Shown one piece after another: positions 30,272 to 54,226 of a DNA stretch of 56,015 bases (position 1 is the stretch's first letter; every line of letters begins with the position of its first letter). The notes under the pieces were generated by a model that saw only the letters and a program-made list of their open reading frames with translations, was not told where the DNA came from and ran no database searches. The DNA is taken from assembly GCA_016180645.1 (NCBI GenBank), contig JACPAV010000023.1, positions 1-56,015 of the forward strand. The letters run 5' to 3'. This DNA comes from Nitrospirota bacterium. GTDB taxonomy: Bacteria; JACPQY01. The position numbers were made by a program, and so were the translations under genes.

Positions 30272-31663
30272 TCAGGCGGCGAAGGTCTCGACTCGGTCGC
30301 GGCCGTTCCGTTTGGCCAGATACAGCGCCTGATCCGCCTGCTGAATCAGTTCGGCCTTGTCCCGCGGCCGGCCCGAGGCGATGGAACTGACCCCGGCGCT
30401 CGCGCGCACTTCCACCGGGAGCCCTTCCCGTAGGAATCGAGTCCCCTTGATCCCTTCGCGGAGCCGTTCCGCCATTTTCACCGCGCCTTCGAGATCGGTT
30501 TCCGGGAGGACAAGGATGAATTCCTCTCCCCCGTAACGGCCGGAGATGTCCGCCTGACGGCAAAGCTGTCGGATGTTCCAACCGACCGAGACCAGCACTT
30601 TGTCGCCAAAGAGGTGGCCGTACTTGTCGTTGATGAGCTTGAAATGATCCAGATCCACCATGACTACCGAAAGATCGCGATTGTATCGCGCGGCGGTGTT
30701 GAACAAGGCGTCCATCTCAAGCTGAAACGTCGCGTGGTTCAGGAGTCCGGTGAGTGAGTCCCTACGGGATAATTCCTGGGCGCGCTCGTGCATGAGGATG
30801 TTGTTGACGACGAGCGCGAGCTGGTCGCTCATCCGCGAGACGTTTAGTTGGTCCATGGGATCGAAAGATCCGTCCTGGAGGTCATTGAGATTCAGCACCC
30901 CGATGGCGGACCCTTGTTCCAGGAGCAGCGGGTAGGAAGCGGCGAATGATTGGGTGTACTTCACCTCTTCGGAGCCGGTGGGGAAATCGAGTTTCGAGTA
31001 GTCCGACACGATGACCGGGAGGCCGGATTTGACGGCCTGTGACATCATCCCCGGCCGTTCAACGTCCACATACTGATCGAGCGGAGGCGACGGGTGGTTG
31101 TCCGCCCAGTGTTCAAGAATCTCGCCTTGCGTGGTCAAGACATAGAGCGAGAAGAGATTCACTCCGAGGAGCGCCGGGAGATCGGCCTTGAGCGTTTCGG
31201 ATAGCTTGGAACGGTCGAGGACCGTCACATGCCGGCTGAATTCCGCAAATTGCCGGGCCCGTTCGAGGTTGGCCTTCAGTTGTTCGGTCAGATCCCTTGC
31301 CCGAAGGTGGGCCCGGACCCGGGCGATGAGCTCTTTCGGCTCAACGGGCTTGGTGAGGAAATCATCTGCGCCGGCGTCCAACCCCTGCACTTTGGTCGGC
31401 AGATCCTCGCTGCCGGAGAGGATGAGAATCGGGATATCGCCGTGAGCCGGGTCCACCCGCATCCGGGAGAGAACGTCGAATCCGGTGAGGCCCGGCATCC
31501 GGAGGTCAAGTAGAACCATGTGCGGCGGGTCCTTCTTAAACTTGGCCATCGCCTCGGCGCCGTCGGAGGCCGAGTCGACGGTGTATCCTTTCGATCTCAG
31601 CACCTCCCCAAGCACGTCAAGGTTGGTAGCGTTGTCATCCACCACCAGGATCTTGGCGCTCAT
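30272..31663 (-). CDS. Diguanylate cyclase (REC-GAF-GGDEF)
   Basis: Receiver (LLDLRMP), GAF-like middle region, intact GGEEF with RQAD I-site five residues upstream. Confidence 0.93.
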   Translation of the reverse strand: MSAKILVVDDNATNLDVLGEVLRSKGYTVDSASDGAEAMAKFKKDPPHMVLLDLRMPGLTGFDVLSRMRVDPAHGDIPILILSGSEDLPTKVQGLDAGADDFLTKPVEPKELIARVRAHLRARDLTEQLKANLERARQFAEFSRHVTVLDRSKLSETLKADLPALLGVNLFSLYVLTTQGEILEHWADNHPSPPLDQYVDVERPGMMSQAVKSGLPVIVSDYSKLDFPTGSEEVKYTQSFAASYPLLLEQGSAIGVLNLNDLQDGSFDPMDQLNVSRMSDQLALVVNNILMHERAQELSRRDSLTGLLNHATFQLEMDALFNTAARYNRDLSVVMVDLDHFKLINDKYGHLFGDKVLVSVGWNIRQLCRQADISGRYGGEEFILVLPETDLEGAVKMAERLREGIKGTRFLREGLPVEVRASAGVSSIASGRPRDKAELIQQADQALYLAKRNGRDRVETFAA

Positions 31664-32040
31664 GCCGCCGCCTTTGCGTTCAGCGCGCGCCGCACGGCGG
31701 CCAGTACTTCTTTCGGTTCACAGGGCTTGGTCAGGAAATCGGCGCAGCCGGCGCGCAGGGCTTTCTCGCGATCCGCCACGTAGGCGTGCGCGGTGATCCC
31801 GATGACCGGGGTCGATCGCATTTCGGGATTCAGGTGAATTCGGCGGGCGGCCTCCCATCCGTCGATGACCGGGAGGGAATAATCCATCAGGATTACGTCC
31901 GGGCGATGGGCGAGCGCCGTCTCGACTCCTCGCGCGCCGTCCTCCGCCACCACAACTTCGAATCCACTCGCCTCGAGCAAGGTCGTCCAGATGTCGCGCG
32001 TGTCGGGATTGTCTTCCACCACGAGCACCTTGGCCATCAT
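31660..32040 (-). CDS. Single-domain response regulator (DivK-like)
   Basis: VVEDN, ILMDYSLPVIDGWEA and TKP motifs. Confidence 0.93.
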   Translation of the reverse strand: MMAKVLVVEDNPDTRDIWTTLLEASGFEVVVAEDGARGVETALAHRPDVILMDYSLPVIDGWEAARRIHLNPEMRSTPVIGITAHAYVADREKALRAGCADFLTKPCEPKEVLAAVRRALNAKAAA

Positions 32041-33452
32041 GCGGAAACCCCTCCGAATTCCCTTGGAAACGCCATGGAAAATGTGGACCCCGTTCCCACC
32101 CGGCTGTGCACGGTGAGCTGGCCCCCGACAAGTCCCATCAGCTTCCGGCTGATGGCGAGGCCGAGACCCGTTCCCCCGTACGCGCGCGTCGCCGTCGAGT
32201 CGACCTGTCGGAACTCCTCGAAAACGAGATGTTGGTCATCCTCCCGGATGCCGATCCCCGTGTCCGACACATGGATTTGAACCCACTCCTCCCGGAGTCC
32301 GTCCGGGGTGAAGAGCCGGGTGGTGATTCGAACCTCTCCCTGGGCCGTGAATTTGATCGCGTTGGAGAGGAGATTGTAGAGCACCTGCTGGAGTTTCCCC
32401 CGATCGGACCGGACGTGCAAATCGCCCGGGACTTCGTCGGTCTTGAGGGACAAACTCTTGGCCTCGGCCAGCGGCATGAAGGTGGTGAGGGCGCTCGCGT
32501 AGAGATCCTTCAGGGGGACGGTTTCAATCTTAACCGGCATTTTTCCCGCCTCTACGCGAGAGAGATCCAAAACGTCACTGATGAGCCTGAGAAGGTTCTG
32601 GCTGCTGTGAGTGATTTTCTGCAAGGCCTCCTTCTGCTTGTCGGACACGGAGCCGTACACTTCGTCGCGGAGGAGCGCGGTGTAGCCCACGATGGAGTTG
32701 AGCGGGGTGCGGATCTCGTGGGACATGTTGGCCAGAAACTCTGATTTTAGACGGTTGGCCCGCCGCAGGTCTGCCACCATCTGTTCGGCCTGTACCTCGC
32801 GAACCTTGGCCTGCGCTTCAAACTTGCGGCGTTGGCCCTCGACCTCCGTGGCCATCGAGGCAAGGGACTGCGCGGCGGCCTTCCACCCCCCCCGGCTCAT
32901 GCGCGGTACGTGGGAAGGCACGGCGCCATGCGAGATTCCAGCCGCGAAGCCGGTCAGCCTCCGAAGCGGGATTCGGACACCGGCGTTGATTTCGAACAAA
33001 CCCCAAGCGCACAGGATCAGCGCCAACACGCCGGCACCGGCTAGCTGGAGCCGGAATCGCCTCCGGGATTCCTGCTCCGACCATCGGATCGCGCCCTGCT
33101 CTGAATCGATCAGCCGCCGGAGCCGGCGCACTGCATCGGCATGAAGCGCTGGATCGCCCGAAGCCGCTGGAGACCGGAGCGCCTCGATACCCTCCGCCCA
33201 CTGTGCGCGGAGTGCCTTCGAGAGCAGCCCCGATGTTCCAAGGGACCGAAGCCGTTCCAATGCCTGCCTGGCCGGCTCGGAGTCGACCTCACGAATGGAC
33301 GCAAACTCCGCCAATTCCACGGCGGCCGCAATCAGAGCTTCGGCCGTCGCCTCGGCAGGATCGCGGTCTCGGACCAGAGATAGCCACGCCACACCCGTGA
33401 GCGCCAGGCACAACATGGCGGCGAGAACCACCACGGCCGCCAGTCGGGTCAT
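32037..33452 (-). CDS. Membrane sensor histidine kinase
   Basis: Two TM segments, HAMP-like linker, EFLANMSHEIRTPL H-box, NLLSNAIKFT, DTGIGI, GTGLGL. Confidence 0.94.
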   Translation of the reverse strand: MTRLAAVVVLAAMLCLALTGVAWLSLVRDRDPAEATAEALIAAAVELAEFASIREVDSEPARQALERLRSLGTSGLLSKALRAQWAEGIEALRSPAASGDPALHADAVRRLRRLIDSEQGAIRWSEQESRRRFRLQLAGAGVLALILCAWGLFEINAGVRIPLRRLTGFAAGISHGAVPSHVPRMSRGGWKAAAQSLASMATEVEGQRRKFEAQAKVREVQAEQMVADLRRANRLKSEFLANMSHEIRTPLNSIVGYTALLRDEVYGSVSDKQKEALQKITHSSQNLLRLISDVLDLSRVEAGKMPVKIETVPLKDLYASALTTFMPLAEAKSLSLKTDEVPGDLHVRSDRGKLQQVLYNLLSNAIKFTAQGEVRITTRLFTPDGLREEWVQIHVSDTGIGIREDDQHLVFEEFRQVDSTATRAYGGTGLGLAISRKLMGLVGGQLTVHSRVGTGSTFSMAFPREFGGVSA

Positions 33453-33462: not shown

Positions 33463-34839
33463 TCACTGCACGGACGAGCGGATTCCGAGCTTCTTCATCT
33501 TATAGATCAGCGTGGTGCGATCGATTCCCAGCGTTTCCGCCGTTCGCGACTGATTGTGCGCATTTGCCGAGAGGGCCTCGACAATGATTTGTCGTTCCGC
33601 ATTCTCCAGAGTGCTCTTCAATCTGGCATTCGACGAGCCGGTTCCGCCGGCGTGAAGTCCCAGTTCAAGCGGGAGATGTCGCTCCTCCACGGTCTCACCC
33701 TCGTGCATGGACACGATCCGTTCGACAACGTGTTCCAACTCGCGCACGTTCCCCGGCCAGGAGTAAGCCGAGAGACTTCTCGCGGCTTCCGGACTGAGCG
33801 ACGAAAACTTCTTGCCGTATCGGGAGGCGAAACGCGCCAGAAAGGCTTTCGCCAGCACGGGAATATCCTCCTGCCTCTCGCGGAGAGGCGGTACGTGGAT
33901 GGGCACGGTGTGGAGCCGATAGTAGAGATCTGTTCGAAATTGCCCGCCATCCATCGCCTTCTGGAGATCCATGTTCGTGGCGGAAATGACGCGAACGTCC
34001 ACCGGAATCATCCTCTCGCCGCCGATCCGTTCGATCTCCCGCTCTTGCAGAACCCGGAGGAGACGGACCTGCACCTGCGGCGACATGGTGCCGATCTCGT
34101 CGAAGAACAGTGTCCCGTTGTCCGCCAGCTCGAATTTTCCAAGCCGGCGATTCATCGCTCCTGTAAAGGCGCCTTTCTCGTGGCCGAAGAGGTCGCTTTC
34201 AAGGAGGTTGTCCGGCACAGCGGCGAGATGAACGGCCACGAATGGACGTTCCGCCCGCCGACTGAGTCGATGCACGGCTCGGGCGACAAGTTCCTTTCCC
34301 ACGCCTGTTTCGCCTGTAATGAGAACGGCCGTATCGGTCGGGGCCACTTCTTTCACGGCGCGCATCACCGACTGCATCGCGGAAGATTCGAACAGGATCT
34401 GGTGCGGGTGTTGCTCCTCCGCCGCTTTGCGATACGCCATCGATTCGCGATTCATTCGCCGCTTCTCCAAGGCTTTCCGTCCGGTCAGTCGGAGCCGTGT
34501 GAGTTGCTCGTCATCGATGGGTTTCTGCACGTAATCGAACGCGCCGCGCTTGCCCGCGTCGAAGGCGTTCTCCGGCTCGTACCCCGCGGTGATCACGATG
34601 ACCTCGATCGTCGAATCGATGTCCTTGATTTTGGGGAGAAGTCCGAGGCCCGCGTTGCTCTGATCCCCAAGGCAAAGATCGAGGAGCACGAGATCGATGG
34701 ATTTCTGCACGAGGAGTTCCAGCGCGCCGGCCGCGCTCGATGCCGTTGACACCTCGTATTCATCTTTCAGCTTATGGGCGAGGTAGTCGGTGACCGCGGG
34801 ATCATCGTCCACTACCAACACCTGCGGTCGTCGAGCCAT
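33463..34839 (-). CDS. Sigma-54-dependent response regulator (NtrC family: REC-AAA+-Fis HTH)
   Basis: GETGVGKE, GAFTGA, WPGNVREL, C-terminal HTH (LGIDRTTL). Probable start MARRPQ at 34839. Confidence 0.96.
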   Translation of the reverse strand: MARRPQVLVVDDDPAVTDYLAHKLKDEYEVSTASSAAGALELLVQKSIDLVLLDLCLGDQSNAGLGLLPKIKDIDSTIEVIVITAGYEPENAFDAGKRGAFDYVQKPIDDEQLTRLRLTGRKALEKRRMNRESMAYRKAAEEQHPHQILFESSAMQSVMRAVKEVAPTDTAVLITGETGVGKELVARAVHRLSRRAERPFVAVHLAAVPDNLLESDLFGHEKGAFTGAMNRRLGKFELADNGTLFFDEIGTMSPQVQVRLLRVLQEREIERIGGERMIPVDVRVISATNMDLQKAMDGGQFRTDLYYRLHTVPIHVPPLRERQEDIPVLAKAFLARFASRYGKKFSSLSPEAARSLSAYSWPGNVRELEHVVERIVSMHEGETVEERHLPLELGLHAGGTGSSNARLKSTLENAERQIIVEALSANAHNQSRTAETLGIDRTTLIYKMKKLGIRSSVQ

Positions 34840-34910
34840 CACGATTGAAGCGCCGGGGCCCTGTTCGCACTCCCCTGCGCCTATTCCTCCTGACCCAATC
34901 CTACAGTCCT

Positions 34911-34957
34911 TGTTGGAAAATTCAACAAACTTCTGAAGATTGTGGGGAGCGCCAACG
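34911..34957. promoter_or_regulatory. Tandem upstream activator (enhancer-like) sites, TGT-N11-AC(A/G)
   Basis: TGTTGGAAAATTCAACA (34911) and TGTGGGGAGCGCCAACG (34941), 30 bp apart; first is 129 bp from the -24 GG. Confidence 0.65.
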
Positions 34958-35037
34958 AGGAAACGATCTTTGCCATTGACACGCTGCATAACCCTTCATA
35001 ACTTCTTTGTTATTCACTCAGTGATTCAGATCACATC

Positions 35038-35054
35038 TTGGCAATCTCCTTGCG
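35038..35054 (+). promoter_or_regulatory. Sigma-54 -24/-12 promoter
   Basis: TTGGCAATCTCCTTGCG; GG-N10-GC spacing matches TGGCAC-N5-TTGC. Confidence 0.8.
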
Positions 35055-35067: not shown

Positions 35068-38000
35068 ATGCTTCCCGAAGTGACTTTGGACTCTCTGACT
35101 CGCGCAACTTTCATTAGCGCCATTCTCGCCGCCATCCTGCTGTTGAATCTGAGTTCGTGCACCCGAAAGGGCGGTCGCTTGCTCCGAACCCCGCGGACGA
35201 CATCTTCTCCAAATGAAGGGAAGGCCTCCGAATCTCCCGCTGATGCCACCATCACCGGCGAAATATCGCCTGCATCCGCAAGGATTCTCGGCCGAGTCGT
35301 TTCCGAATCCGGCGAACCGGTTCCCGGCGCAAAGGTGAAGGTCATGCGGTTTGGTGATTCCAGCCTTTCGCGCGAGACGATGGCGGACGGCAATGGAGTT
35401 TTCTCCTTCGACTGGGATCAACTCGAAACCGTGGCGGTGTCTTCCACGGCTGAAGGATTCGCCACTCAAAGCACGATTGTCGATCTTGTCGAGCAGAGCA
35501 CGAGCTTGTCTCTCACGCTTCCCGCGATCCACTTTGTGAAGGACTACGAAATCAAGGCCGACACCCCGGAACTCAAGATCGACCTTCCCGACAACTCAGT
35601 CTCCATCGAGATTCCCGACCCGGCCCGAGCACTGGGAACGACCGGTCCGATTCGAGTGGAAGTCTCCTCACCTTCTTCAGGCGGCGCCGATGTGCCCATG
35701 CCCGGCGGATTCATGGCGATTCTGTCCCGCACCCCTTCCCCCTCCCCCTCGACGGGGGAGGGTCAGGGTGGGGGTGAAAACGTGCGAAAGCAGGCTGTTC
35801 GCCGTTCGGGGCCCGGACCAGAGGAGATTGTTCAGCTCGCCTCGGTCGCCTATGCGGACATTACCCTCCGTGATTCCGCCGGAAACGAGATTCATGAGCT
35901 GAACTCACCCGCCAAGGTAAGAATGAAAATCACGCCTGGCACGCTGAATCCCGCCACCAACGCGCCGTTCAAGATCGGCGATACGGTCCCCATGTGGTAC
36001 ATCGATCCCGACGCTGGCACATGGGTCCCGGAAATCGATGAGAAGGGTGAGCAGACCGTCGGGACCGTCCTGGGAGCCGATACCGGTCTACAGGCAGAGT
36101 TCATGGCGAAACATTTTACGTGGTGGAATTTGGACCAGCCCATTTCCACACGGCATTGTTTGCGCGGAAGGGTAATCGACCCATGCAATCTGCCCGTTAC
36201 CAATGTGAGCGTCTGTGCCAACGGAGTGAGTTTCCAGGGGGCAAGTTGTCGCGGTGCGACCAAGTTCGTCTACAAGCGAGAAGATGGGCTGGGACAGGAA
36301 GGATTATTTTGCTTGGACATCCTGAAGGGTAGCACAGTCGATCTCCAAGTCGGTCGGGGCGGGATCTACAAGGGAAGATTCGATCTCGATGAAGTCCTTT
36401 GGCAGAAACAGCTCTCCGTATCGGGTACGGAGGCCACATGCGGCCAATCACCACTCGCATGCACGGACCTCGGGGACGTGGTGGTGCTCCGCTCTCTACG
36501 CCGAGTAGTAGGCCGAATTGTCAACAAGGGGGGGGAGATGGTGGGCCACGCCCTGGTTAGTGTGAATGGGAGGGTTTTTGAGGCGGCGGGCGACGGTCAT
36601 TTCGAACTCAGAAGTGAGCCAACCGAGAACCTCACGATTTCTTTCACCCACCCCAAGGGCGCAAAGTTCGGCCAGACTACGCGCGGGGCGAACATTCCCG
36701 GAGTGACCCCCGAGCCGGGCAAGTGCGAACAGCTCCCCCCGATCGATCTTGGAGACATTCCCATGAACACGGAAACAGGATGTCTGCGAGGGAAAGTCGT
36801 GGACGAAACGGGGAACGTGGTCCAAAATGCCAATCTCGCCTTGGGCGGAAGTTTCGTCCAAAGCGACCGAGGCGGGAACTACTGCCTGGAGTCGCTCACC
36901 GGCGCGCAGGAACTCAACCTTCGTCTGTATGATCGTGGCCGCGGCCGCCTCCACACGAAAAAAGCCCCCTACCAAATCGTGGGAGGCGGCTATTGCGGCG
37001 GAGGGGACGAACGGTGCGTCCATGCGGATATCGTCGTGGAACTCGGAGATGCCTGCATCTCCGGCACGGTCAAGGACCAAGCAGGCAAGCCCCTCGACAG
37101 CGCGGTTGTTCAGATCGGCAACCAAATGGTCACCACCGATAAAACCGGTCATTATTGCATCCAGGCCCAAGCCCGCGCGAAGCAGAGCATTCGATTCAGA
37201 GCCTTCTCCGGGATCGGCGGCGCCGCATCCGAATCTGAGGAAACCGTCGAAGTCGAAACCAGCGGTCCCGGCCTGTGCAGCGCGAACGCAAAGAAGAATT
37301 GCACTTCGCATGACGCAACCATTCGCATCAACCAGCCACCGGCCATCGATTCGATCAAGGCGAGGGACAAGCGCGTGGACCCATCCGAAGAAACCGAAAT
37401 CACGCTCCGAGCGACCGATCCCGAAGACGCAGAGATGGGCTTCGTCTGGTCCTCCACCGGCGGTGAGGTCCAAGCCCCAAACTCCAAGATTTCCGGCCAG
37501 CACCCCCCATCCCCACCTTCCCCCTCAAGGGGGGAAGGGACGATAGGGAACCCGCTTCACACAGCTTCCCCCTCCCCCTCGACGGGGGAGGGTCAGGGTG
37601 GGAGTGAACGCCCACCTCAGGCTGGTCCCACCCGCCAAATCACCTGGAAAGCCCCCGCGGAACCCGGCGTATACACCGTCAGCGTCATCGCCAAGGACGA
37701 TCGCGGCGCAACAGCCATCGCAAGCGTGGAGATCCCCGTCGGACAGGATCAAGACGGCGACGGCTTCATCGAGAAGATCGACTGCGACGACCGGAACTCC
37801 AGTGTCCACCCCGGCGCTCCGGAGATCTGCGATCAGACCGACAACGACTGCAACGGGAAGGTCGATGACGTTCCCGCCACAATGGTCTTCTGGAAGGACC
37901 AGGACGGCGACGGGTACACGGACGGCACTTTCTTGAAGGGCTGCCCGGTGGGTCCCGGCTGGACTCAGACCGCGAAGAGAGGCGATTGCCGGGATGATCT

Positions 38001-41640: not shown

Positions 41641-41833
41641 CCGTCCACGCACTTATCCTGGTGCGCCTCACCTTCGTGGCTCGGCCTGATCGGACAAGTG
41701 CCGCACCTTCCTGGCTGGCACTCGCCAAACATTCCCTCCTCATCCTGAGTCGGGTTGATCGGTCGAGTGCCGCACCCTCCTGGCTGGTCCTCGGCCTGCC
41801 CTGAGCGTCCACGCGCCTGGTCATCCCTGACGC

Positions 41834-43456: not shown

Positions 43457-43473
43457 TTGGCCCCGACTTTGCG
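43457..43473 (+). promoter_or_regulatory. Sigma-54 -24/-12 promoter
   Basis: TTGGCCCCGACTTTGCG; GG-N10-GC. Confidence 0.75.
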
Positions 43474-43541
43474 AAATACTCAATGTGAATTTCACTAACG
43501 ATTCACCCGCACCGTCCGACGACGCCATTGGAGGCATTGAG

Positions 43542-46500
43542 TTGGGGATAGTGGCACGAGGCAACCCTTCTTGGTCTAGGCTGTCGATCCGCGCTCTGAT
43601 CGGCTCGGCTTTTCTCCTCGCCGTTGCAGGTTGCACGGGGAAGGGCGGCCGCATCGGTTACCGAGACGGACGCCTGCCTTCACAACAGGCTGATGTACGC
43701 ACCGATGAACTCGTTCTCGAAAATCGACCGTTCGACCCAGAAAAAGTTGCCACCGATCCCGCGACCGGATTTCAAATGGTGTCGGACGAGATCCTTGTCA
43801 CGTTCAAGCCGGGCACGACGGCGCAGGACGCCGAGGCCGCCGTGCAGTCCATCGGGGGAAAGCTCGTCGGATTCAACTCGACTCTTGATTTATATGAAGT
43901 CGAATTACCGGCCGCTCTCACGCCGGGGGAGGCTCGCGAAAAACTGAAGGCCAATCCGGCTGTCGATCAGGCCTTTCCCAACGGCATCGCTAAGGGCGAT
44001 CAAACGGACTCTCAGTCCACCTGCGGCTGGCCCGATGGTTTTCCAAACGACCCGGTGTTCAAGGACTGCGACGCCAAGAACGATTGGGGCTATGCGAAGA
44101 TCAGCGCGGGGCCGGCCTGGCAAACCACCGCCACGTTAACGGAGGTGGTGATCGCCATCCTCGATACGGGCGTCGATTCCTCCCACCCCGAATTCGCCGA
44201 CCGCATGCTCCCCGGGCGTGACTTTGTTTATGGAGGGACCGACACAACCGACCGTCACGGGCACGGCACCCACGTGGCCGGCATAGCCGCGGCACGCGGC
44301 AACAACGAAAAAGGTATGGCCGGCGGCTGCTGGGAGTGCAAGATCCTGCCCGTCAAAGTGCTGAGCGATGGCGGTTGGGGCACGTGGATGGGAGTCCTGA
44401 ACGGAATTGCGTGGGCCGCCCAGCAAGGGGCCGATGTGCTGAACATGAGCCTCGGCGGAGGCCGGTCGGAAGATCTCTACAAAATGATGGAAGATGCAAT
44501 CGCTTCAGCCCGGAAGTCAGGAGCCCTCTCCGTGGTGGCGGCGGGAAATTCGAATACCGATGCTTCCTTCATGCTGCCCGCCGCGGCGCCTTCCGCGGTC
44601 ACGGTGGCTGCGACATCTTCAACTGACCAACGCGCGACGTTCTCGAATTTCGGATCGATCGTGGATGTATCGGCGCCCGGCGTCGACATCTGGTCGACCT
44701 ACCCGAACAACGGCTACAAATACATGAGCGGGACGTCCATGGCCGCGACCATGGTGACCGGCGCCGTGGGCTGCATTTTTTCACGGGGGGCCGCCTCCTC
44801 ACCCGATGAAGCGGAAAGTCTCCTGAAAGCGGTGGCGGATTCAATCCAGACGGACAAGCCGCTGGGCGCCGGTCGCCTCAACCTTGGAAAGGCGTGCACA
44901 TCCAACGGCAACAAGCCGCCGATGGTGGCCCTCCAAGCCGATCCTTCGTCTCTGAAGCCCCTGGGCGTCTCCACGATCACGGCGAAGGCCTCCGATTCGG
45001 ACGGCGATCCTCTCTCATACGCGTGGACCTCCACCGGCGGCACGCTCACCGGTACCGGTACCACCGTCACATGGAACGCACCGGACAAAGTCGGGGCCTA
45101 CTCGATCACGGTGAAAGTGAGCGACACCCACTACATGGTCCCCGCCTCCTTGACGATCTCGGTGAAAACCGGCGAGGTCTACAGCCTGGTCATCATGCCC
45201 GGGATCGTGCCCGACATGATCAAAGGGCAGACCCAACAGATGAAATGGCGCATCGAGGACGAGGTCGGCCAGGTTCTGAACGAATCGCCTGCGTGGAACG
45301 TGGCTCAAGGGGTCGGCTCCATCACCGCGGGCGGCCTCTTCACTGCGGAGAACCCCGGCGAAGGGCAGATCGTCGCCGAGTTCAAGGGTGCGGTGACGAA
45401 CGCGAAGGTCAAAGTGGTCAACCGACTTCCCACCTGCTACGCCTCGGCCTTGCCGCTCAAAGGCCACATTCCCTTCGAAGTGGAGTTCGCAGGTTCCGCC
45501 GTCGACCCCGACGGGTCCATCCCGACCGGATCGTGGAGCTTCGGCGACGGAGGAACCGCGACCGGCATGGCCGCGAAGCACACGTACATTTCACCCGGCC
45601 ATCCGGACGCCACATTCACGGCAACGGATGCCCATGGCGGCAGTTGCACAACGATCATCCCCATCCAAGCCGAGCCGCCGAACAAGGCGCCCACGTGCAA
45701 GGCTTCGGCAGGTCCGGCCACCGGCAAAGCACCTCTGCACGTGCAGTTCTCCTCCGGGGCACAAGACGTGGATGGAACCGTTGCTTCAACACTGTGGACC
45801 TTCCACAACGGCAGTACCCAGACGCAATCGCAGGCAAGCTTCCTGTACACAACCGCGGGTACGTACTCCGTCTCCCTCGCCGTGAAGGATGACGACGGGG
45901 CGACATGCGTGGATCAGACGAGCGTTATGGTCCTCCCACCCAACACGCCGCCGACCGTCATCGCGAACGCGAATCCCTCATTCGGAGATGAGCCCCTGCC
46001 CATCGTACTCAGTGCCACCGCGTGGGACTCCGACGGCAAGATCTCCTCGTACGCATGGACTACCGGCGATGGTGGAACCTCGTCACAAGCTTCGTTCGCC
46101 CACACGTACAAGCAGGACGGCGCCTACACGGCCACGGTCACCGTAACCGATGACGACGGTGCGAGGGCAACGGCCAAGGCGTCGGTGCAGGTGAAGCAAG
46201 TCATCCATCCACCCACCTGCACCATCGAGGCCATACCCACCCAGGGAAAAGCGCCGCTGTCGGTGAGCTTCAGCGGCAGCGCCGCCGATGCGGACGGGTC
46301 GATCACCGGCACACTCTGGTCGTTCGGCGACGGAACTTCTTCCAACAGCGCCGCCACCTCCCACGTTTATTCCAGGGCAGGGACGTTTTCCGCCGATTTC
46401 AAGGCCACGGACAACGACGACGCCACCTGTCACGGTTCGGTGCAGCTCAATGTCCGCCCCCCCAACCAGCCGCCTACGCTGGCGCTCCAAGCCACGCCAC

Positions 46501-49500
46501 CCATCGGGAACGAGCCGCTGACGGTGCAGTTCACCTCCAACGCCGGCGATGCCGATGGAACCATCGTCGCCTACCAATGGAACTTCGGCGACGGGCAGTC
46601 GTCATCCGAAGCCAACCCTTCACACGTCTATGTGAACGATGGGAAGTACACCACCGCGGTGACCGTAACGGACGACGACGGCGCAACGGCCACCGCCTCG
46701 ACGGTCATTCGCGTGGACAAGGTTTTCCTCCCCGTGTCCTGCACTGCATCGGCAGTCCCCGAGTGGGGGTCCGCGCCTCTTCCGGTCCAGTTCACGGGTA
46801 CCGTGAGCGATCCGGGAGGAGATGTCGTTTCGTCTACGTGGGACTTCGGCGACGGCGCGTTTTCAACACAGTTGAGCCCCACGCATACCTATGGGATCGA
46901 GGGCGCGCCAACCGCAACCTTGCGCGTCAAGTCCGCCTGCGCCGCGAAGCAGATCGTAAGCGGTGATCGACATACCTGCGCCCTCCTGGCCGATGGGACC
47001 GTGGCCTGTTGGGGATCCAACCGTTCGGGTGAACTCGGGGACGGGAGCACCGTGGACCGGGATGTCCCCGTCGCCGTTTCCAGTCTGAACGGCGTGACCG
47101 AGCTAAGGGCGGGACGAGATCGGACCTGCGCAGTGCTTCAAGATGAGACCGTCCAGTGTTGGGGGAACTTGAGCGGGTTGGCGGGCGGCGACGGGACGTC
47201 GAGCCTTGTGCCGGTCGCTGTCGCGGACAGTTCGGGAGTTGGAGACCCGAGCCCGGCCTACTCCCATTCCTGCTCCATCCCATCCAACGGAACCGTCGCA
47301 TGCTGGGGAAGCAACGCCTCGGGGCAGCTCGGCGACGGCACGACAGTGGACCGGCCCGATCCCGTCGCCGTAATCGATCTTCAAGACGCGAAGGCCGTTG
47401 CCGTCGGCGAGGAACATTCCTGCGCTCTTCTAGCCGGTGGGAGTATCAAGTGCTGGGGGTCCGACCATGAAGGTCAACTCGGAGACGGGGCAAGCGATCC
47501 CACAGTGATCAGGGCCGTCCCTGAGCCGATCGCTTCTTCCCTCTGCTCCGCCTGCACCAAGACTCTACACATAAGCGTGAATCCCAGTCAGCCGCCGGTG
47601 TGTTCGGTTTCCGCCACCCCCGTCGTTGGACCGGTGCCCCTGACCGTATCCTTCTCCGCACAGGGCTCGGACCCCGAGGGCCAGCCGGTATCGTTCGCGT
47701 GGACCTTTGGGGATGGAAACCCGGGCACGGGATCGAACCCCAGCCATTCTTATGTTTCTAGGGGCATTTTCACCACCCGTCTCACGGCGCAAGATCCGCA
47801 GGGCGCACAGTGCATCAAGGAAATCCAAATCCAAGCCAACCCGAACATGCCACCGACCTGCTCCGCCGCCGTGAGCCCGACGCGTGGACCGGCGCCGCTC
47901 CAGACCACGTTCACCGGAAACGCGGCGGACTCGGACGGCTCCATCGTCGGGTCCTCTTGGAACCTCGGAAACGGGTCCACCCTCACCACCACATCGGGAA
48001 GTTACAGCTACGCACAGGCCGGCACCTACTATCCGGTGTTCACCGCCAAGGACAGCAGCGGGGCAACCTGTTCCAAGAATTCCAGCGTGAAAGTGGATGC
48101 GAAGCCCGTTTGCGCGATCTCGGCTACACCCACCCAAGGGCGCGTTCCCCTCACCGTCTCCTTTGGCGGCGCGGCAACCGATTCTGACGGGTTCGTGATG
48201 GCGACCACTTGGAACTACGGCGATGGCTCCTCTCCCGGCGGCGGCTTCTCCACACACACCTTCCAATCCGAGGGCCAATACACGGCCACATTCACCGCCG
48301 CCGACAACGACGGGTACACGTGCACACCATCACTATCCATCAAGGTCCTCCCACCCAACAAACCGCCGACCTGCGCGGCAAGCGCCTCGCCGGCCAAAGC
48401 CCACGTTCCCGGAAACATCCCATTCTACGGCACGGCCTCGGACTCTGATGGCAGCGTAGCCCAATTGTTTTGGGCGTTCGGAGACGGCTCGACATCCAGC
48501 TCGCAAAATCCTTCGCACCTCTACACAACGCCAGGCTCGTTTGAGGCCAAGCTGACGGTCACGGACAACGAGGGAGCCACCTGCGCGAGCACCCAATCGA
48601 TCGTGATCGAACCACCGAACAAACCGCCGACGGTATCCATGGCGGCCACGCCACCGAAAGGCCCCGAACCCCTGAACGTCGGATTCACGGCCACCACCTC
48701 CGATCCCGACGGTCAGGTGGTAACCTATGCCTGGAATTTCGGGGATGGAACTTCATCCGCAGCGGCTTCTCCGCAACACCTCTACTCACAAGACGGAACC
48801 TACACCGCCACACTGGTGGTCACCGACGACGACGGCGCGACCGCTTCGGCCTCGGCGGTGGTCGTCGCCGAAAAGGTCTTGATCGCCCCGAATTGCTCCG
48901 CCTCGGCCACCCCGATCAAAGGCCATCAGCCTCTGCAAGTCACTTTCAGCGGAACGGCTACGGACGCCGACGGCTCGATCCAGAGCACGACCTGGAAGTT
49001 CGGAGACGGCTCGCAAACCGCCGGCGCCGGCGCGACGCACACCTACACAACGCAGGGCTCCTATACAGCCGTCTTCTCCGCCGGCGACAACGACGGCGTT
49101 TCGTGCAGCGCACAAGTCGGCATCGTCGTGGAGCCGCCCAACAAACCGCCGGTCGCCGTCCTCTCGGCCGATCCCAGAGCCGGGTTTGTGCCGCTGGCCG
49201 TTTCTCTCAACGGCGCGGCGAGCTGGGATTCGGATGGATCGGTCGTCACCTTCGAATGGGATTTCGGTGACGGAACGCAGGGCATCGGGTCGACACCGGC
49301 CCATATGTTCAAAGTGTGGGGGGATTTCGAGGTCAAGCTTACCGTCACCGACGACGACGGAGCGAGGGGTACCGCCACCGTGTGGATCGAAGTCTGGGAG
49401 GGCGATACGGGTTCCGCTGATGCGTGGCCGATGTTTGGGGCGAACGCCGCGCACCACAACTTCTCTCCGGCGAGACTGCCCTCGACTCTCGATATTCTGC

Positions 49501-51563
49501 CTTCCATCTGGCCCTCGGGTTCAGGAGGCATCGGCGGACAGGAGCTGAACATTCCCGTCCTCTCGCCGGCCATCAGCGATGGCCTGTTGTATACAACCAC
49601 CTCGGACCGCCTGCACACGTTCGACGCCCTCACGGGCAAAGCACTCTGGTCGCTCCCGGTACCTTACGCCTCGGACGACCCAACTCCGGCCATCGGCGAA
49701 GGCGTTATCGTGTTCACCACGGGCAACGAACTCTACGCCTACGAGGTCGCGACCGGCCGTCTCCTCTGGGGGCCGAAAAGCCTGGACCTTTGCAGCGACT
49801 CCACATCGCCCGCGATCGCCGATGGTCTCGTCGCTGCCATCGACTGCCAGAGCAATCTCCGGGTTTTCAGCCTGCACACCGGAGCGGCCGTGCTGAATGC
49901 GCTCGTGCACGGGGGACAAGTAACCACCCCCTCCGGCAGCCCCACCCTCTACAACGGAAAGATTTGGACGGCTACTCCCATGCCCTCCATCGGAAAAACC
50001 TATCTGGACCGCTGGAACGCTTCTCCTACGGGCTTTGAAACCACCACGGTGGTCGACGGCCTGGTCCAATCCGCGCCCGCCGCCAAATACAACACGCTGT
50101 TCGTGGGGGACCTCTCGGGCAGACTCTCCGCCTATGACGTGGGCACGGCCGTCCGCCGTTGGACCTTCCTGGCCGGTCACAGTGTTTCCACCACGCCCGC
50201 GGTCGTTCGCGGCAAGGTCATCTTCGGCTCGTGGGACCACAAGGTCTACGCCCTCGACGCCTTCACGGGGAAACTTCTTTGGAGCGCCCTCACCGATGGG
50301 GAAATCCGGTCCAACGTGGCAGTCACGCCGGACTACGCCATTGCGGTCAGCCGGCCGGGGACGGTCTACCGCTTCAAACTGACCGATGGATCGTTGGTCG
50401 ATTCGACGGCCCTCGGCGTGGAAACTTGGGCCTCGCCCGCCCTCGCCCACGGCATGATCTATGTCGGCTCATCGGACGGGAAGATTCACGTCCTCGGCGA
50501 CTCGAGCAAACTCCAGTCCCTGACACGCACGTGGACCTCGCTCGGAGCGGACGCCGGACACACCGGCTCCGCGCCCACGCTCGGCCCCACATCCGGAAGC
50601 GAACAATTCGTCTTCACCGCGGGCGGCGGCGTCAACGGCAGCGCGGTGTTGAACGATCAAGGTGAGCTCCATTTTGGCACGGCCTCGGGAACTTTCTACG
50701 CCCTTCAGCGTGACGCGACGGTGAAATGGTCCTATCCAACGGGCCTCTTGCGGGGCTCGGCGGCCATGGACGGTTGGGGCAATGTCATCGCGGCATCACA
50801 GGGAGGCGTGGTCCACAAGATCAGTCCCACCGGCGTGCTTCTTTGGACGTACTGGGTGGCCAATACCATTCAGGCCACGCCGTGCGTCGGCCCGGACGGA
50901 AGCGTGTATGTCGGGGATACCTCGGGAAAATTCTTCGGGATCAGCGCGGACGGCGCGCTCAAGTTCAAAACCTCTCTCGGCGACGCCATGCGGAACGCCT
51001 GCGCAACGGATGCCGCGGGGAACATTTACGTGGGCGGGGGAGACAACAGGCTCCGGAAGTTCAGCGCTTCCGGAGCCCTCCTTTTCGAGCGCGGTTTTAC
51101 CGGGCCCGTGCTGACGACGCCCACGGTGAGCGAGAACGGAACCGTTTTTGTATCCACTCAAAACGGCTACTTCTTCGCCCTGACCTCCGGAGGCGGCCTC
51201 CTCTGGTACGCTTCCGGCGGCGGAACCGCAAGCGTGGACTCGAACAACGTCTACGTTCAGTCCGCAGGTGGACTGGATGTCTACACCCGATCCGGGTCAC
51301 CCGTATGGAGCTTCAGACCCGGCGGCGGCTGCTCGAACCCCGTCACCGAAAGCCCGATCGTTGACGTGGAGGGAAACGTTTTCTTCAAGCACCGCGGCGG
51401 CGGATGCACGGGCGGAGCCGTCATCCATGCGCTCGATCCCACGGGGCAACTTCTCTGGAGCACCCCCGTAGCCGCCGGATCGGACTCCAGCCCCTCCCTC
51501 GGACGCGGCCGCGCGCTCTACCTCGGCTCCGGCCAGGGTCTCCACATTTTCGGCCAGAACTGA
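43542..51563 (+). CDS. Giant surface lipoprotein: S8 subtilase with propeptide, Ig domains, about 13 PKD domains, inserted RCC1 repeats, two PQQ-like beta-propellers
   Basis: Lipobox VAGC; ILDTG, HGHGTH and GTSMA triad; recurring W.FGDG...H.Y...G.Y...L.VTD; GS.DG..YA.D repeats. Start TTG 43542 (GGAGG upstream) or GTG 43551. Confidence 0.9.
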   Translation: MGIVARGNPSWSRLSIRALIGSAFLLAVAGCTGKGGRIGYRDGRLPSQQADVRTDELVLENRPFDPEKVATDPATGFQMVSDEILVTFKPGTTAQDAEAAVQSIGGKLVGFNSTLDLYEVELPAALTPGEAREKLKANPAVDQAFPNGIAKGDQTDSQSTCGWPDGFPNDPVFKDCDAKNDWGYAKISAGPAWQTTATLTEVVIAILDTGVDSSHPEFADRMLPGRDFVYGGTDTTDRHGHGTHVAGIAAARGNNEKGMAGGCWECKILPVKVLSDGGWGTWMGVLNGIAWAAQQGADVLNMSLGGGRSEDLYKMMEDAIASARKSGALSVVAAGNSNTDASFMLPAAAPSAVTVAATSSTDQRATFSNFGSIVDVSAPGVDIWSTYPNNGYKYMSGTSMAATMVTGAVGCIFSRGAASSPDEAESLLKAVADSIQTDKPLGAGRLNLGKACTSNGNKPPMVALQADPSSLKPLGVSTITAKASDSDGDPLSYAWTSTGGTLTGTGTTVTWNAPDKVGAYSITVKVSDTHYMVPASLTISVKTGEVYSLVIMPGIVPDMIKGQTQQMKWRIEDEVGQVLNESPAWNVAQGVGSITAGGLFTAENPGEGQIVAEFKGAVTNAKVKVVNRLPTCYASALPLKGHIPFEVEFAGSAVDPDGSIPTGSWSFGDGGTATGMAAKHTYISPGHPDATFTATDAHGGSCTTIIPIQAEPPNKAPTCKASAGPATGKAPLHVQFSSGAQDVDGTVASTLWTFHNGSTQTQSQASFLYTTAGTYSVSLAVKDDDGATCVDQTSVMVLPPNTPPTVIANANPSFGDEPLPIVLSATAWDSDGKISSYAWTTGDGGTSSQASFAHTYKQDGAYTATVTVTDDDGARATAKASVQVKQVIHPPTCTIEAIPTQGKAPLSVSFSGSAADADGSITGTLWSFGDGTSSNSAATSHVYSRAGTFSADFKATDNDDATCHGSVQLNVRPPNQPPTLALQATPPIGNEPLTVQFTSNAGDADGTIVAYQWNFGDGQSSSEANPSHVYVNDGKYTTAVTVTDDDGATATASTVIRVDKVFLPVSCTASAVPEWGSAPLPVQFTGTVSDPGGDVVSSTWDFGDGAFSTQLSPTHTYGIEGAPTATLRVKSACAAKQIVSGDRHTCALLADGTVACWGSNRSGELGDGSTVDRDVPVAVSSLNGVTELRAGRDRTCAVLQDETVQCWGNLSGLAGGDGTSSLVPVAVADSSGVGDPSPAYSHSCSIPSNGTVACWGSNASGQLGDGTTVDRPDPVAVIDLQDAKAVAVGEEHSCALLAGGSIKCWGSDHEGQLGDGASDPTVIRAVPEPIASSLCSACTKTLHISVNPSQPPVCSVSATPVVGPVPLTVSFSAQGSDPEGQPVSFAWTFGDGNPGTGSNPSHSYVSRGIFTTRLTAQDPQGAQCIKEIQIQANPNMPPTCSAAVSPTRGPAPLQTTFTGNAADSDGSIVGSSWNLGNGSTLTTTSGSYSYAQAGTYYPVFTAKDSSGATCSKNSSVKVDAKPVCAISATPTQGRVPLTVSFGGAATDSDGFVMATTWNYGDGSSPGGGFSTHTFQSEGQYTATFTAADNDGYTCTPSLSIKVLPPNKPPTCAASASPAKAHVPGNIPFYGTASDSDGSVAQLFWAFGDGSTSSSQNPSHLYTTPGSFEAKLTVTDNEGATCASTQSIVIEPPNKPPTVSMAATPPKGPEPLNVGFTATTSDPDGQVVTYAWNFGDGTSSAAASPQHLYSQDGTYTATLVVTDDDGATASASAVVVAEKVLIAPNCSASATPIKGHQPLQVTFSGTATDADGSIQSTTWKFGDGSQTAGAGATHTYTTQGSYTAVFSAGDNDGVSCSAQVGIVVEPPNKPPVAVLSADPRAGFVPLAVSLNGAASWDSDGSVVTFEWDFGDGTQGIGSTPAHMFKVWGDFEVKLTVTDDDGARGTATVWIEVWEGDTGSADAWPMFGANAAHHNFSPARLPSTLDILPSIWPSGSGGIGGQELNIPVLSPAISDGLLYTTTSDRLHTFDALTGKALWSLPVPYASDDPTPAIGEGVIVFTTGNELYAYEVATGRLLWGPKSLDLCSDSTSPAIADGLVAAIDCQSNLRVFSLHTGAAVLNALVHGGQVTTPSGSPTLYNGKIWTATPMPSIGKTYLDRWNASPTGFETTTVVDGLVQSAPAAKYNTLFVGDLSGRLSAYDVGTAVRRWTFLAGHSVSTTPAVVRGKVIFGSWDHKVYALDAFTGKLLWSALTDGEIRSNVAVTPDYAIAVSRPGTVYRFKLTDGSLVDSTALGVETWASPALAHGMIYVGSSDGKIHVLGDSSKLQSLTRTWTSLGADAGHTGSAPTLGPTSGSEQFVFTAGGGVNGSAVLNDQGELHFGTASGTFYALQRDATVKWSYPTGLLRGSAAMDGWGNVIAASQGGVVHKISPTGVLLWTYWVANTIQATPCVGPDGSVYVGDTSGKFFGISADGALKFKTSLGDAMRNACATDAAGNIYVGGGDNRLRKFSASGALLFERGFTGPVLTTPTVSENGTVFVSTQNGYFFALTSGGGLLWYASGGGTASVDSNNVYVQSAGGLDVYTRSGSPVWSFRPGGGCSNPVTESPIVDVEGNVFFKHRGGGCTGGAVIHALDPTGQLLWSTPVAAGSDSSPSLGRGRALYLGSGQGLHIFGQN

Positions 51564-51590: not shown

Positions 51591-51612
51591 AATTGTGATG
51601 TAGATCACGGGA
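51591..51612. promoter_or_regulatory. CRP/FNR-family binding site candidate
   Basis: AATTGTGATGTAGATCACGGGA versus CRP consensus TGTGA-N6-TCACA (9/10 core). Confidence 0.55.
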
Positions 51613-51712: not shown

Positions 51713-51728
51713 TGGTACGCGGGTTGCG
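51713..51728 (+). promoter_or_regulatory. Sigma-54 -24/-12 promoter
   Basis: TGGTACGCGGGTTGCG; GG-N10-GC, close to TGGCACG-N4-TTGC. Confidence 0.75.
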
Positions 51729-51876
51729 TTTCTGTTCTTGAAATCGATGACCAAGCATGCTTTCCAAAGGACCCGTTCCCGTCGCCCCAACCTAAACTCT
51801 TCCTTCAGGTTGGCCGATGAGTTCAGTAGCTGAAATCTAGGGAGCAACGCCCAGGGAAAACCGAAAGGGGGGATCA

Positions 51877-54226
51877 GTGGGCAAGGAAGCCCGGAAACTC
51901 GGATCTTGTTTCATTCCGCTCGCCATCGCCGCCGCGGGCCTCATGGCAGGGCGCTGTACGCCGGGGATACCGCCAGGCTCCGCCCGTCAGGCTCCTGAGG
52001 CCGTGGAGGGCACCGACCTGATTCTGGAAGCCGTCCTCCCGCTCCATCCGGAGATTGCCGCCGCCATGAGTGCAATCGAAGATGAGACGGACCTCCAAGC
52101 CCTTCTGACAATCGACGGTGGCGAGGGTGTCGAGGGAGTGCGGGCCGGGGTCCGACTGGGAGTTCGCGCCGGCATTCGGGCGGGCCGTCGCGCAGAAGAT
52201 ACCTCCGGCGTTCGTCTCGGCGTGAGATTGGCCACACAAGAAGGCGTGCGCTTGGCGTCCGGCCGGGGCTTGGCTCCGTCCATCTTCCACCCGGACACTT
52301 CTCCCGAAACAAATCCACTCGACCGCATGCGCGTCCCCCTCACATTGACCGCCGAGTTCCCATCCACACCGGCCTTCGAGGACAAATCCCCCAATCTAGG
52401 CAAGCTTCCACCCGCGGCCCCTGCATCGCCGCCGGACTTGTCATCCCTCGGCTTCGTGGCCCATTTCCGCGTACACCCTGGCGGCCGGTCCGACCGCACC
52501 GGATCCATCCGAGCTTCGATTCGCCTTCGAAGACCTCGCCGAGCGGTTCCGTGAAAAACTCGTCCAGACGGCCAGGGCCTCGGGGGTCCCACCGGAGGAC
52601 GTCCCGGAGCTCGCGTGGGCTCCCGCCGACTTCTCACATCCAGATACGGTCGCCACGGCAGATAGGGCCATCGTGCGGGTGGCGGAGTCGGCGAACATCA
52701 CGCTAACCTGCTCCAAGTCGGAGTGCGCCTTCCGTTGTTCATGGACGTCGCCCGCCGGCTCTCGCGCGGGCGAGGTTTGCTCAAGCCCTTTGAACTTTCA
52801 GAGTGATCGAACCGGAGAACATCGGCTCTTCGTCGCCGCCGTGGATAAGTTCGGCACCCGTGATCTGAGTCCGGCGGAGATCGTCTTCCATGTTGTCTCC
52901 GATGTCGTCTGCGTGTCGGAATCCTGTGGGACCCCCCCACCCCAAGAATCGCCGGTGGACTCTCCCCCGTCTGACCCCGCGCCTGTCATTTCCCTTTCCG
53001 GTGATGACAGCGTGCCACCCGACACGCAGCTCACCGCCACGCCTCCGCGAGTCACGCGGGCCGATACCGCGACCTTCGAATTCGCGGCCTCAGAGCCTGT
53101 GGCGGCCTTCGCGTGCGGCTTGGGTTTGGGCGCCCCCTTCGCGTGTACGTCGCCTTTCGCCCTCATCGGGCTCAAAGAGGGCGGCCATGCGTTCAGAGTT
53201 TTCGCAGTCGACGCCGCGGGCAATCGCGATGCGTCCCCCGCCCTTTACGAATGGCTGGTGGATCGGACGCCTCCGAAGCCGGGGCAAGTCGCCGCCACCG
53301 GTCCGGGCGAATCGAGCTACCTCCGCTCGACCTCCATTCTGTTCATGGCTTGGACGGGTTTTTCCGATGAGCCCGCCGGCATCCAATCCTTCGACACCCA
53401 GGTCAACACTCAATCGGACTGCACGGGGGCGATCCAAGCCGCCGGCGATGCCGGTCTGGCGCACGCCGTCGAACCGGCCGGCCTGCAACTTCAGGATGGG
53501 AAAACCTACTTCGGCTGTGTGCGGGCCACGGATCGCGCAGGAAACGCCGGAAGTTGGGTTTTTTCACCAGGTCTCACGGTGGATGTGAGCGAACCCACAT
53601 CAACCATCCTCCAGCCCAAGAGCGGATCCAAGCTCCCGGCCCTGTCGGCCATCGGCGGAACGGCCGCCGATACCATCAGCGGCGTGGCCGGCGTGGGCCT
53701 GACGATCCGGCGGGAAACGGACGGGCTCTACTGGGAGGGTACATCTTGGGGGAGCGAGCCAAGCTGGAACAAAGCGACGGGGGAATCCAATTTTGTCTTC
53801 ACGGGTGTTCCGACCTGGGAAAGCGGCGTACGGTATGTCATTCGCTCGCGGGCGATTGATGTGGCCGGCAATTTGGAAACGCGCGATTCAATCTCCCTCT
53901 TCACATTCGATTCGACACCTCCCGCCTTCGCGGGAGCGGCATCGGCGATCAGCGCGGCCAACGCCGTGCGCGTGTCGTGGTCAACCGCCACCGACGCGGT
54001 TTCTCCTCCCCTCGCGATACGGTACCTCATCTGCAGGTCCGTCACCGCCGGGGTATGCGCTTCGTTCAACGCCACCGCCGTCACCGCCCCGGGAGTGACG
54101 AAGTTTGATTTCACCGGCCTGAGCGGAAACACAACCTACTATTTCGTCGTCCGCACGCGGGATGAGGCCGGGAATACCGACTCCAACCTGACCGAAGTCT
54201 CGGCCACCACCGGCAACGCCAACTGA
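51877..54226 (+). pseudogene. Secreted Ig-like/FN3 multidomain protein split by an apparent +1 frameshift (pseudogene or sequence error)
   Basis: ORF 51877-52554 has a signal peptide. The next frame is open 52400-54226 and reads as protein well before its first start codon (52673); it encodes PPDT...A.D.AGN Ig repeats and an FN3 domain. Confidence 0.65.

Follow-up and report, generated by a model that had tools for sequence, protein, structure and literature searches.

Genes for very large surface proteins that lie near the gene of a sigma-54 activator, each preceded by a sigma-54-like motif, raise the question of whether one signal, acting through that one activator, switches on all of them. 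This arrangement is found on a 56,015-nucleotide (nt) stretch of DNA from a Nitrospirota bacterium (GTDB lineage JACPQY01), referred to below as the window, which is an entire contig (JACPAV010000023.1, here C27) of the 65-contig, 4.7-Mb assembly GCA_016180645.1. A preliminary description of the window proposed that a four-gene operon, encoding an NtrC-type activator, a histidine kinase, a receiver and a GGEEF cyclase that would synthesize cyclic di-GMP (c-di-GMP), diverges from three genes for very large proteins, named here P1, P2 and P3, and that the activator drives all three. Our analyses show that the operon is a real, conserved and branched two-component module, and they make it plausible that the three motifs are sigma-54 promoters. 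They do not support the proposal of a single activator: if the local activator serves any of the three genes, it is probably P1 alone, and others among the approximately 36 activators encoded by this genome probably act on P2 and P3. In addition, the distribution of a CRP/FNR-type palindrome suggests that this sequence is a more widely shared control element of the giant lipoprotein genes of this genome than the sigma-54 sites are.

The signalling operon and the sigma-54-like motifs

The operon consists of the following genes:

30272-31663, minus strand: predicted diguanylate cyclase of the REC-GAF-GGDEF type (Pfam GGDEF, 6.5e-43; Response_reg, 3e-30; GAF_2, 3.2e-6)
31660-32040, minus strand: stand-alone receiver protein (Response_reg, 1.9e-28), overlapping each neighbour by 4 nt
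32037-33452, minus strand: membrane histidine kinase (HisKA, 7.5e-23; HATPase_c, 1.2e-27)
33463-34839, minus strand (longest open reading frame (ORF) to 34989): NtrC-type activator (Sigma54_activat, 1e-69; Response_reg, 7.4e-21; HTH_8, 1.4e-13)

These Pfam matches bear out the preliminary description of the four genes, which are tightly packed: besides the two overlaps, the only junction is a gap of 10 nt between the activator stop and the kinase start. The translation of the activator contains a GAFTGA motif and a Walker A motif, and its combination of a REC domain, an AAA+ sigma-54 interaction domain and a Fis-type helix-turn-helix (HTH), encoded next to a kinase gene, is that of the NtrC family. 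The translation of the kinase, inspected by eye, has two hydrophobic segments that flank an outside domain of ~110 amino acids (aa), followed by HisKA and HATPase_c. The cyclase has a GGEEF active site, an I-site of the RxxD type (RQAD) five residues upstream of it and a receiver domain, by which it would belong to the PleD/WspR-like REC-GGDEF proteins.

Apart from this genome (G000), only one, G001, is placed in its GTDB class and phylum, and in a phylum of two genomes almost nothing at the locus can be tested by comparison. No relatives closer than G001 were found in scans of the collections, where the best matches reached 63% (L028, in genome_contigs) and 41% identity (in metagenome_contigs). 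In G001, the ortholog of the activator shares 65% identity with it and is still adjacent to kinase, receiver and REC-GGDEF genes, which have been rearranged and are now convergent with the activator gene; it is because this neighbourhood is kept that we regard the module as conserved. The ortholog aligns from residue 52 and begins directly at the REC domain, and the first 50 residues of the longest ORF have no counterpart there. The true start of the activator is therefore probably M51 at 34839, and with that start the divergent intergenic region between the activator gene and P1 measures 228 bp instead of 78 bp.

The genes proposed as targets, and the motifs ahead of them, are the following:

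35039-35053, plus strand: sigma-54-like -24/-12 element of P1, TGGCAATCTCCTTGC, with GG-N10-GC spacing; position weight matrix (PWM) score 13.4
35068-41640, plus strand: P1, predicted lipoprotein of 2190 aa, with CarboxypepD_reg, 10 MopE-type Cys-rich repeats, fn3 and a C-terminal RCC1 propeller (Pfam and translation)
43458-43472, plus strand: sigma-54-like -24/-12 element of P2, TGGCCCCGACTTTGC, with GG-N10-GC spacing; PWM score 14.4
43542-51563, plus strand: P2, predicted lipoprotein of ~2670 aa, with a fervidolysin-type prodomain, S8 subtilase, Big_9, 13 PKD domains, an RCC1-like insert and C-terminal PQQ-type propellers (Pfam and translation)
51713-51727, plus strand: sigma-54-like -24/-12 element of P3, TGGTACGCGGGTTGC, with GG-N10-GC spacing; PWM score 18.7
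51877-54226, plus strand (frames 51877-52554 and 52400-54226): P3, a frameshifted, shortened member of a family of larger lipoproteins, with an Ig-like/fn3 C-terminus

Pfam confirmed the earlier domain readings of P1 (Cys-rich stalk and RCC1) and P2 (protease, PKD and propellers). The statement that the operon diverges from three very large proteins holds in part: P1 is a divergent giant and P2 is a giant at a distance, but P3 is neither. Both frames of P3 match single paralogous lipoproteins of 1628-2301 aa, and we therefore consider P3 a frameshifted product of ~780 aa. An assembly error as the origin of the frameshift was considered and rejected, as contigs of the runs X1 and X3, which come from one study and are possibly the source of this DNA, cross the shift without an indel. 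By eye, candidate lipoboxes can be seen in P1 (LLLNLSSC) and P2 (LLAVAGC), and that of P3 (AGRC) is non-canonical. In five giant lipoproteins, namely P1 (35068-35170), P2 (43542-43650), the P2 paralog C28:70485 and the products of two tandem genes on contig C63, the lipobox cysteine is followed at once by the sequence C-x-x-KGGR, possibly as a signal for sorting or as a signature of the family.

The genome encodes RpoN (Sigma54_DBD, 200.6 bits, on contig C25), and the sigma-54 activator domain PF00158 gave 39 matches genome-wide, 36 of them above 100 bits. The -24/-12 elements reported near 35038, 43457 and 51713 were all found with the canonical spacing, GG and GC being ten bases apart in a motif of the TGGCAC-N5-TTGC type. 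They were scored with a PWM that was trained on the rest of the genome, leaving out contig C27, and that comprised 41 training sites. This check, which had been suggested with the original proposal, separates the three sites: that of P3 is strong and that of P2 is fair, but that of P1 is marginal on its score alone, because in its score bin the observed number of sites is about that expected. Genome-wide, the strict consensus is enriched 18.8-fold per GG-N10-GC core in upstream regions compared to coding regions (24/4771 versus 16/59895). Likewise, upstream sites exceed the number expected from the coding rate at scores of at least 12 (46 versus 7.0), at least 14 (41 versus 2.8) and at least 18 (25 versus 0.6), and the bin from 14 to 16, to which the P2 site belongs, holds 6 sites versus 1.8 expected. 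The loose pattern TGG-N8-TTGC occurs nine times in the window versus 7.32 expected, a number reached by 29 of 100 shuffles; what is not random is the placement of the motifs in three co-oriented upstream regions, and not their count.

In the case of P3, a sigma-54 promoter is very probable. Its predicted start at ~51739 would give a 138-nt leader up to the GTG at 51877; the sigma-54 site is not conserved in the five P3 paralogs. A sigma-54 promoter is also probable for P2, with somewhat less confidence. Transcription from its predicted start at ~43484 would produce a 58-nt leader to the TTG at 43542, which is preceded by GGAGG. The closest paralog of P2, C28:70485, encodes 3652 aa, shares 55% identity in the protease part and has a sigma-54 site that scores 23.7, at a similar distance to the start codon; it lies on another contig, and the nearest activator domain is ~20 kb away. 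The site of this paralog is therefore evidence that the P2 family depends on sigma-54, but it does not speak for the local activator as its regulator. A small inverted repeat, GTGAA-T-TTCAC at 43479-43489, is located on the predicted start of the P2 transcript and may be an operator.

A CRP/FNR-type palindrome ahead of giant lipoprotein genes

A second type of element is present ahead of P1 and P3:

35020-35035, no strand assigned: CRP/FNR-type palindrome, AGTGATTCAGATCACA, one mismatch to TGTGA-N6-TCACA
51594-51609, no strand assigned: CRP/FNR-type palindrome, TGTGATGTAGATCACG, one mismatch, centred at ~-137 from the predicted P3 start

The sequence TGTGA-N6-TCACA is the Escherichia coli CRP consensus; it also fits the NifA-type site TGT-N10-ACA. 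There are 24 perfect copies in the genome, 21 of which are intergenic, and G001 has 8 perfect copies versus none of a control pattern. Six Crp/Fnr-type HTH proteins are encoded. The palindrome is present upstream of 18 of the 139 genes of at least 1000 aa, versus 50 of the 3407 smaller ones (odds ratio 10, p = 4e-11), and P1 and its two paralogs on C63 are among the large genes that carry it, as are the C28 paralog of P2 and a gene on contig C30 for a lipoprotein of 3035 aa. It is also found at four of the five P3 paralogs compared, and P3 itself, which is below the 1000-aa cut, carries the copy at 51594. No palindrome was found upstream of P2, even when 2 mismatches were allowed.

The palindromes occur at fixed distances from promoter-like hexamers. 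Firstly, five genes have the arrangement palindrome-N28-TTGAC(A/G)-N17-hexamer-N6-ATG, with the ATG located 62-63 nt past the site. Secondly, other genes have the arrangement palindrome-N21-TAnnnT, with the ATG 34-37 nt past the site. CRP sites of class I and class II are centred at -41.5, -61.5 and -71.5. By these rules the fixed distances correspond to class I/II positions, and on that basis the messenger RNAs (mRNAs) are predicted to be leaderless, or nearly so. Seven candidate sigma-54 sites have a palindrome no more than 300 nt away, compared to ~1 expected by rough arithmetic. The palindrome may itself be a binding site of the sigma-54 activator, but relative to the predicted sigma-54 starts the copies are positioned anywhere from ~-190 to +30, a spread that fits no single enhancer geometry.

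At P1, the end of the palindrome is separated by 3 nt from the -24 box and by 32 nt from the ATG. Where its relatives have the GAC...TG pattern in the spacer, P1 has the sigma-54 motif. The same palindrome is nearly midway between the two divergent ATGs, being at +30 to the ATG at 34989 (the longest ORF of the activator) and at +32 to that of P1 at 35068, and a leaderless long form of the activator may exist.

Among the sigma-54 activators, six are encoded by open frames of 1735-1947 aa (at C28:90156-95495, C10:37716-43010 and four other places). The two that were read have Ser/Thr-kinase-like N-termini, and there is a TGTGA palindrome upstream of both.

Taken further, these data lead to a speculative scheme, to which we would give perhaps one chance in four. 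In this scheme, the giant surface lipoproteins of the two-genome phylum would form a regulon under one CRP/FNR-type factor, which would act from fixed positions that give rise to leaderless mRNAs, and sigma-54 promoters with dedicated activators would be layered on a subset of the genes (P1, the P2 family, P3 and the 3035-aa C30 gene). P1 would then integrate a global signal and the kinase/c-di-GMP module on one stretch of 50 bp.

Control of P1, P2 and P3

The explanation that we consider the best as a whole, and that we put forward tentatively, at a little less than an even chance, is that the local activator acts on P1 only, that P2 and P3 are reached by other activators, and that the palindrome is layered on top. 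Each binding and transcription step in it is predicted from sequence. The membrane kinase would sense an extracytoplasmic cue and would phosphorylate the three receivers of its own operon, which are those of the sigma-54 activator, the lone receiver and the REC-GAF-GGEEF cyclase, c-di-GMP synthesis being a parallel output. The activator would most likely bind tandem repeats in the 228-bp divergent region and, once bound, would open the sigma-54 promoter in front of P1, its only local target. The P1 palindrome could drive a leaderless sigma-70 transcript, or could modulate the sigma-54 promoter. The tandem repeats are the following:

34910-34958, no strand assigned: tandem inverted repeats, candidate activator sites, with a perfect TTGTTG-N7-CAACAA at 34910-34928 and a 2-mismatch copy at 34940-34958

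The repeats are 30 bp apart and are centred at ~-146 and -116 from the predicted sigma-54 start of P1 at ~35065, 3 nt ahead of the ATG, from which transcription would be nearly leaderless. The copy of TTGTTG-N7-CAACAA at P1 is the sole perfect one in 4.7 Mb, and the pair is one of two tandem pairs genome-wide. With the same detector, tandem palindromes were found in 34 of 3000 random and in 42 of 900 intergenic windows of 200 nt, so that, as evidence for an enhancer of P1, the pair is suggestive (about p = 0.05) and not decisive. It is plausible, and in our estimation about as probable as not, that the local activator drives P1 through sigma-54.

Several observations weigh against this explanation of P1. 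Its score falls in the PWM bin from 12 to 14, which holds 5 sites versus 4.2 expected, and a decoy with a score of 14.2 is present in antisense within the activator gene at 34398. The A at the third base after GG in the P1 motif is absent from all 41 training sites, a penalty that is partly built in, since the seed pattern demanded C or T at that position. The genome-wide counts rest on crude longest-ORF gene calls. If the first ATG of the activator (34989) is used, the tandem palindrome falls inside its longest ORF. Furthermore, a sigma-54 site scoring at least 8 is absent from the 40 kb fetched around the G001 activator ortholog, and the tandem TTGTTG palindrome was not found in G001, whose 5 near-matches are all single, none of them near a sigma-54 site or on the contig of the ortholog. 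Among paralogs, the sigma-54 site is conserved for P2 (C28) but not for P1: both tandem P1 paralogs on C63 have TTGACA-N17 sigma-70 promoters and no sigma-54 site. Finally, P1 itself fits the geometry of its sigma-70-type relatives, palindrome-N21-hexamer with the ATG at +32, which could account for its transcription without sigma-54.

The last point leads to the main competitor at P1, a sigma-70 promoter of the CRP/FNR type that would occupy the same 50 bp; both promoters may operate. In its exclusive form, this alternative states that the -24/-12 match of P1 is fortuitous, that a class II CRP/FNR-dependent sigma-70 promoter produces a leaderless P1 mRNA, and that the activator operon regulates something else, which we regard as unlikely, though it is the strongest of the alternatives. 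In P1 the hexamer 21 nt past the palindrome is TGCAAT, and the same geometry recurs at C13:52877 (ATG at +37) and C57:14833 (+34). The P1-like gene of G001 lacks a sigma-54 site, and immediately 5' of its open frame a one-mismatch palindrome is followed, 21 nt further on, by the hexamer TATGTT. The C63 paralogs have the arrangement palindrome-N28-TTGACA-N17-hexamer-N6-ATG, the P1 motif has a score at chance level, and the six Crp/Fnr-type proteins provide candidate regulators. On the other hand, TGCAAT lacks the A at position 2 that is present in all other hexamers, and the P1 spacer lacks the GAC start and TG end common to the others. A match of at least 13.4 within 228 bp on one strand is estimated to be expected in only ~0.1-0.3% of cases, and one would have to accept as coincidences both the divergent activator and a tandem palindrome placed at enhancer distance.

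The proposal that one signal and one local activator drive all three sigma-54 promoters, with the cyclase of the operon co-controlling the surface apparatus, is improbable in our view. It is favoured by the presence of three co-directional genes within 19 kb of the activator, each with a correctly spaced upstream motif, as three chance placements are unlikely (the coding rate at scores of at least 12 is 88 matches, an estimated ~1e-5 per position and strand). A TTGTTG half-site ~30 nt before the -24 box of P3 and a 3-mismatch match to the palindrome at 43302 also favour it. However, the three genes have no common upstream motif: no 12-mer, with at most 1 mismatch, is common to the upstream regions of P1, P2, P3 and the C28 and C30 genes, and the detector used for P1 found no tandem palindrome at P2 or P3. 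The sole 9-mer common to the three promoters of the window, which resembles AGATTGTGG, was considered as a shared enhancer and rejected, its positions being unrelated.

The distances do not help the single-activator proposal either. The sites of P2 and P3 are 9.5 and 17.8 kb from the activator, and these distances carry no weight because, with ~36 activators, an estimated ~30% of the genome is within 20 kb of an activator domain. For P1, by contrast, nearness lends some support, its site being one of 8, out of 46 candidates scoring at least 12, that are within 3 kb of an activator domain; about three quarters of the candidates are more than 5 kb from any. The sigma-54 site of the P2 paralog is on another contig and without a nearby activator, and P3 is a frameshifted remnant. 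Moreover, P1 and P2 are separated by three genes:

41869-42150, plus strand: HigB-like toxin (PF05015, 9.5e-16)
42147-42497, plus strand: HTH_3 antitoxin (HTH_3, 7.2e-9)
42559-43296, plus strand: PAP2-family membrane protein (Pfam PAP2_3, 9e-10)

The first two, a HigB-like toxin gene followed by that of an HTH antitoxin, constitute a HigBA type II toxin-antitoxin pair with its own sigma-70-like promoter at 41834-41862. The arrangement is also not kept in G001, where the divergent neighbour of the activator is a FadL-like porin and no homolog of P1 or P2 lies beside the activator. A lack of conservation of sites and linkage in relatives, which the preliminary description had named as a refutation, is thus what we find, as far as a single relative can tell: the linkage of activator, kinase, receiver and cyclase is kept there, but the sites and the linkage to the giant genes are not.

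The part of the proposal that concerns c-di-GMP fared no better. A scan for RNA families in the window detected only the signal recognition particle RNA at 17720-17816 and no c-di-GMP riboswitch, a scan of the P3 leader was also empty, and no PilZ domain was present in the Pfam-scanned proteins. Because neither a riboswitch nor PilZ was found, nothing ties the cyclase to the surface proteins.

The remaining alternative, that none of the three motifs works as a promoter and that all are chance matches obtained by scanning every upstream region, is very improbable: in its favour, the loose pattern occurs at chance level and the P3 motif overlaps a weak terminator-like hairpin (51717-51729), but the estimated false-discovery rate is ~2% at the P3 score and ~7% at scores of at least 14, the paralog backs the P2 site, and intergenic terminator-like matches are themselves at chance level (17 versus 16.9 expected).

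Some further observations were made in the window. Within P1, two in-frame copies of a dispersed hairpin repeat, made up of a C-rich arm, TCGAC and a G-rich arm, are present at 35734-35778 and 37493-37612. In blastn searches the repeat gave 29-45 matches on 18-23 contigs, with related copies in G001, and it looks like an element resembling miniature inverted-repeat transposable elements or repetitive extragenic palindromic (REP) sequences that is tolerated within the coding region. Just 3' of the P1 stop there is an imperfect direct repeat of ~38 nt (41679-41720 and 41750-41787), with related copies on four other contigs. Close to the end of the window, at 54244-54369, lies a hairpin repeat of the REP-like type, of which the genome has more than 100 copies, and the summed contig word-depth in run X1 rises from ~45 to 1254 in the last bin (54226-54300). 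A weak sigma-54-like site at 6271-6285, with a score of 12.0, is located 38 nt 5' of the gene for a class-V aminotransferase, with a serA-like gene next in line; this site is probably due to chance.

Comparison with known systems

The preliminary description did not recognize the combination of genes at this locus as a described system. The combination corresponds to an ordinary kind of switch, namely a two-component sigma-54 switch to which a REC-GGDEF output has been added. As in NtrB/NtrC switches (glnAp2; AtoS/AtoC and ZraS/ZraR), a REC-AAA+(GAFTGA)-HTH_8 activator is encoded beside its kinase, with a divergent putative target that is preceded by TGGCA-N6-TTGC. In NtrB/NtrC-type systems, the activator sites are two inverted repeats that lie more than 100 bp upstream and are spaced by three helical turns, and the two candidate sites in the P1 region are arranged in this way. 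What sets the locus apart from these switches is the presence in the operon of two further genes, for a lone receiver and for a cyclase of the REC-GAF-GGDEF type. In addition, almost no leader is predicted for the transcript, the -24 box directly adjoins a CRP/FNR-type site, and the putative target is a predicted lipoprotein of 2190 aa.

A partial parallel exists in Pseudomonas putida, in which, according to one report (PMC8125075), the giant adhesin LapA is controlled by the enhancer-binding-type regulator FleQ and by c-di-GMP, to which FleQ is reported to respond. To that extent, both cases place an enhancer-binding-type regulator and a c-di-GMP function beside a giant surface protein, here as genes only. 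Unlike in P. putida, the cyclase of the window is only a co-encoded output, for which no receptor was found, and no partners of the LapD, LapG or LapE type turned up among the scanned proteins. Sigma-54 has also been described as a "central controller of the bacterial exterior" (Francke et al. 2011, PMC3162934). The sigma-54 sites found here are in line with this theme of sigma-54 promoters ahead of envelope and surface genes: 6 of the 46 candidate sites lie ahead of genes of at least 1000 aa, versus 139 such genes among 3546 overall. The theme is a general one, silent on which activator serves which gene. Our literature search on sigma-54 activators with adhesins and diguanylate cyclases, or with Nitrospirae, found nothing on this lineage.

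If the local activator does control P1, the locus would add one case, from a lineage of two genomes, to those in which a sigma-54 two-component system controls a giant adhesin-like protein, and little of the biology would be new. Of more use is the palindrome that recurs across the genome in a fixed geometry, which suggests that very long mRNAs may be translated without a leader and which provides a testable handle on when an uncultured groundwater bacterium makes its costliest surface proteins. In its consensus, and in its fixed distances to the -10 and -35 hexamers, this palindrome resembles the sites of CRP/FNR class I/II promoters. It differs from those promoters in that most of the transcripts are predicted to start within ~4 nt of the ATG, and in that the putative regulon is enriched in giant lipoproteins.

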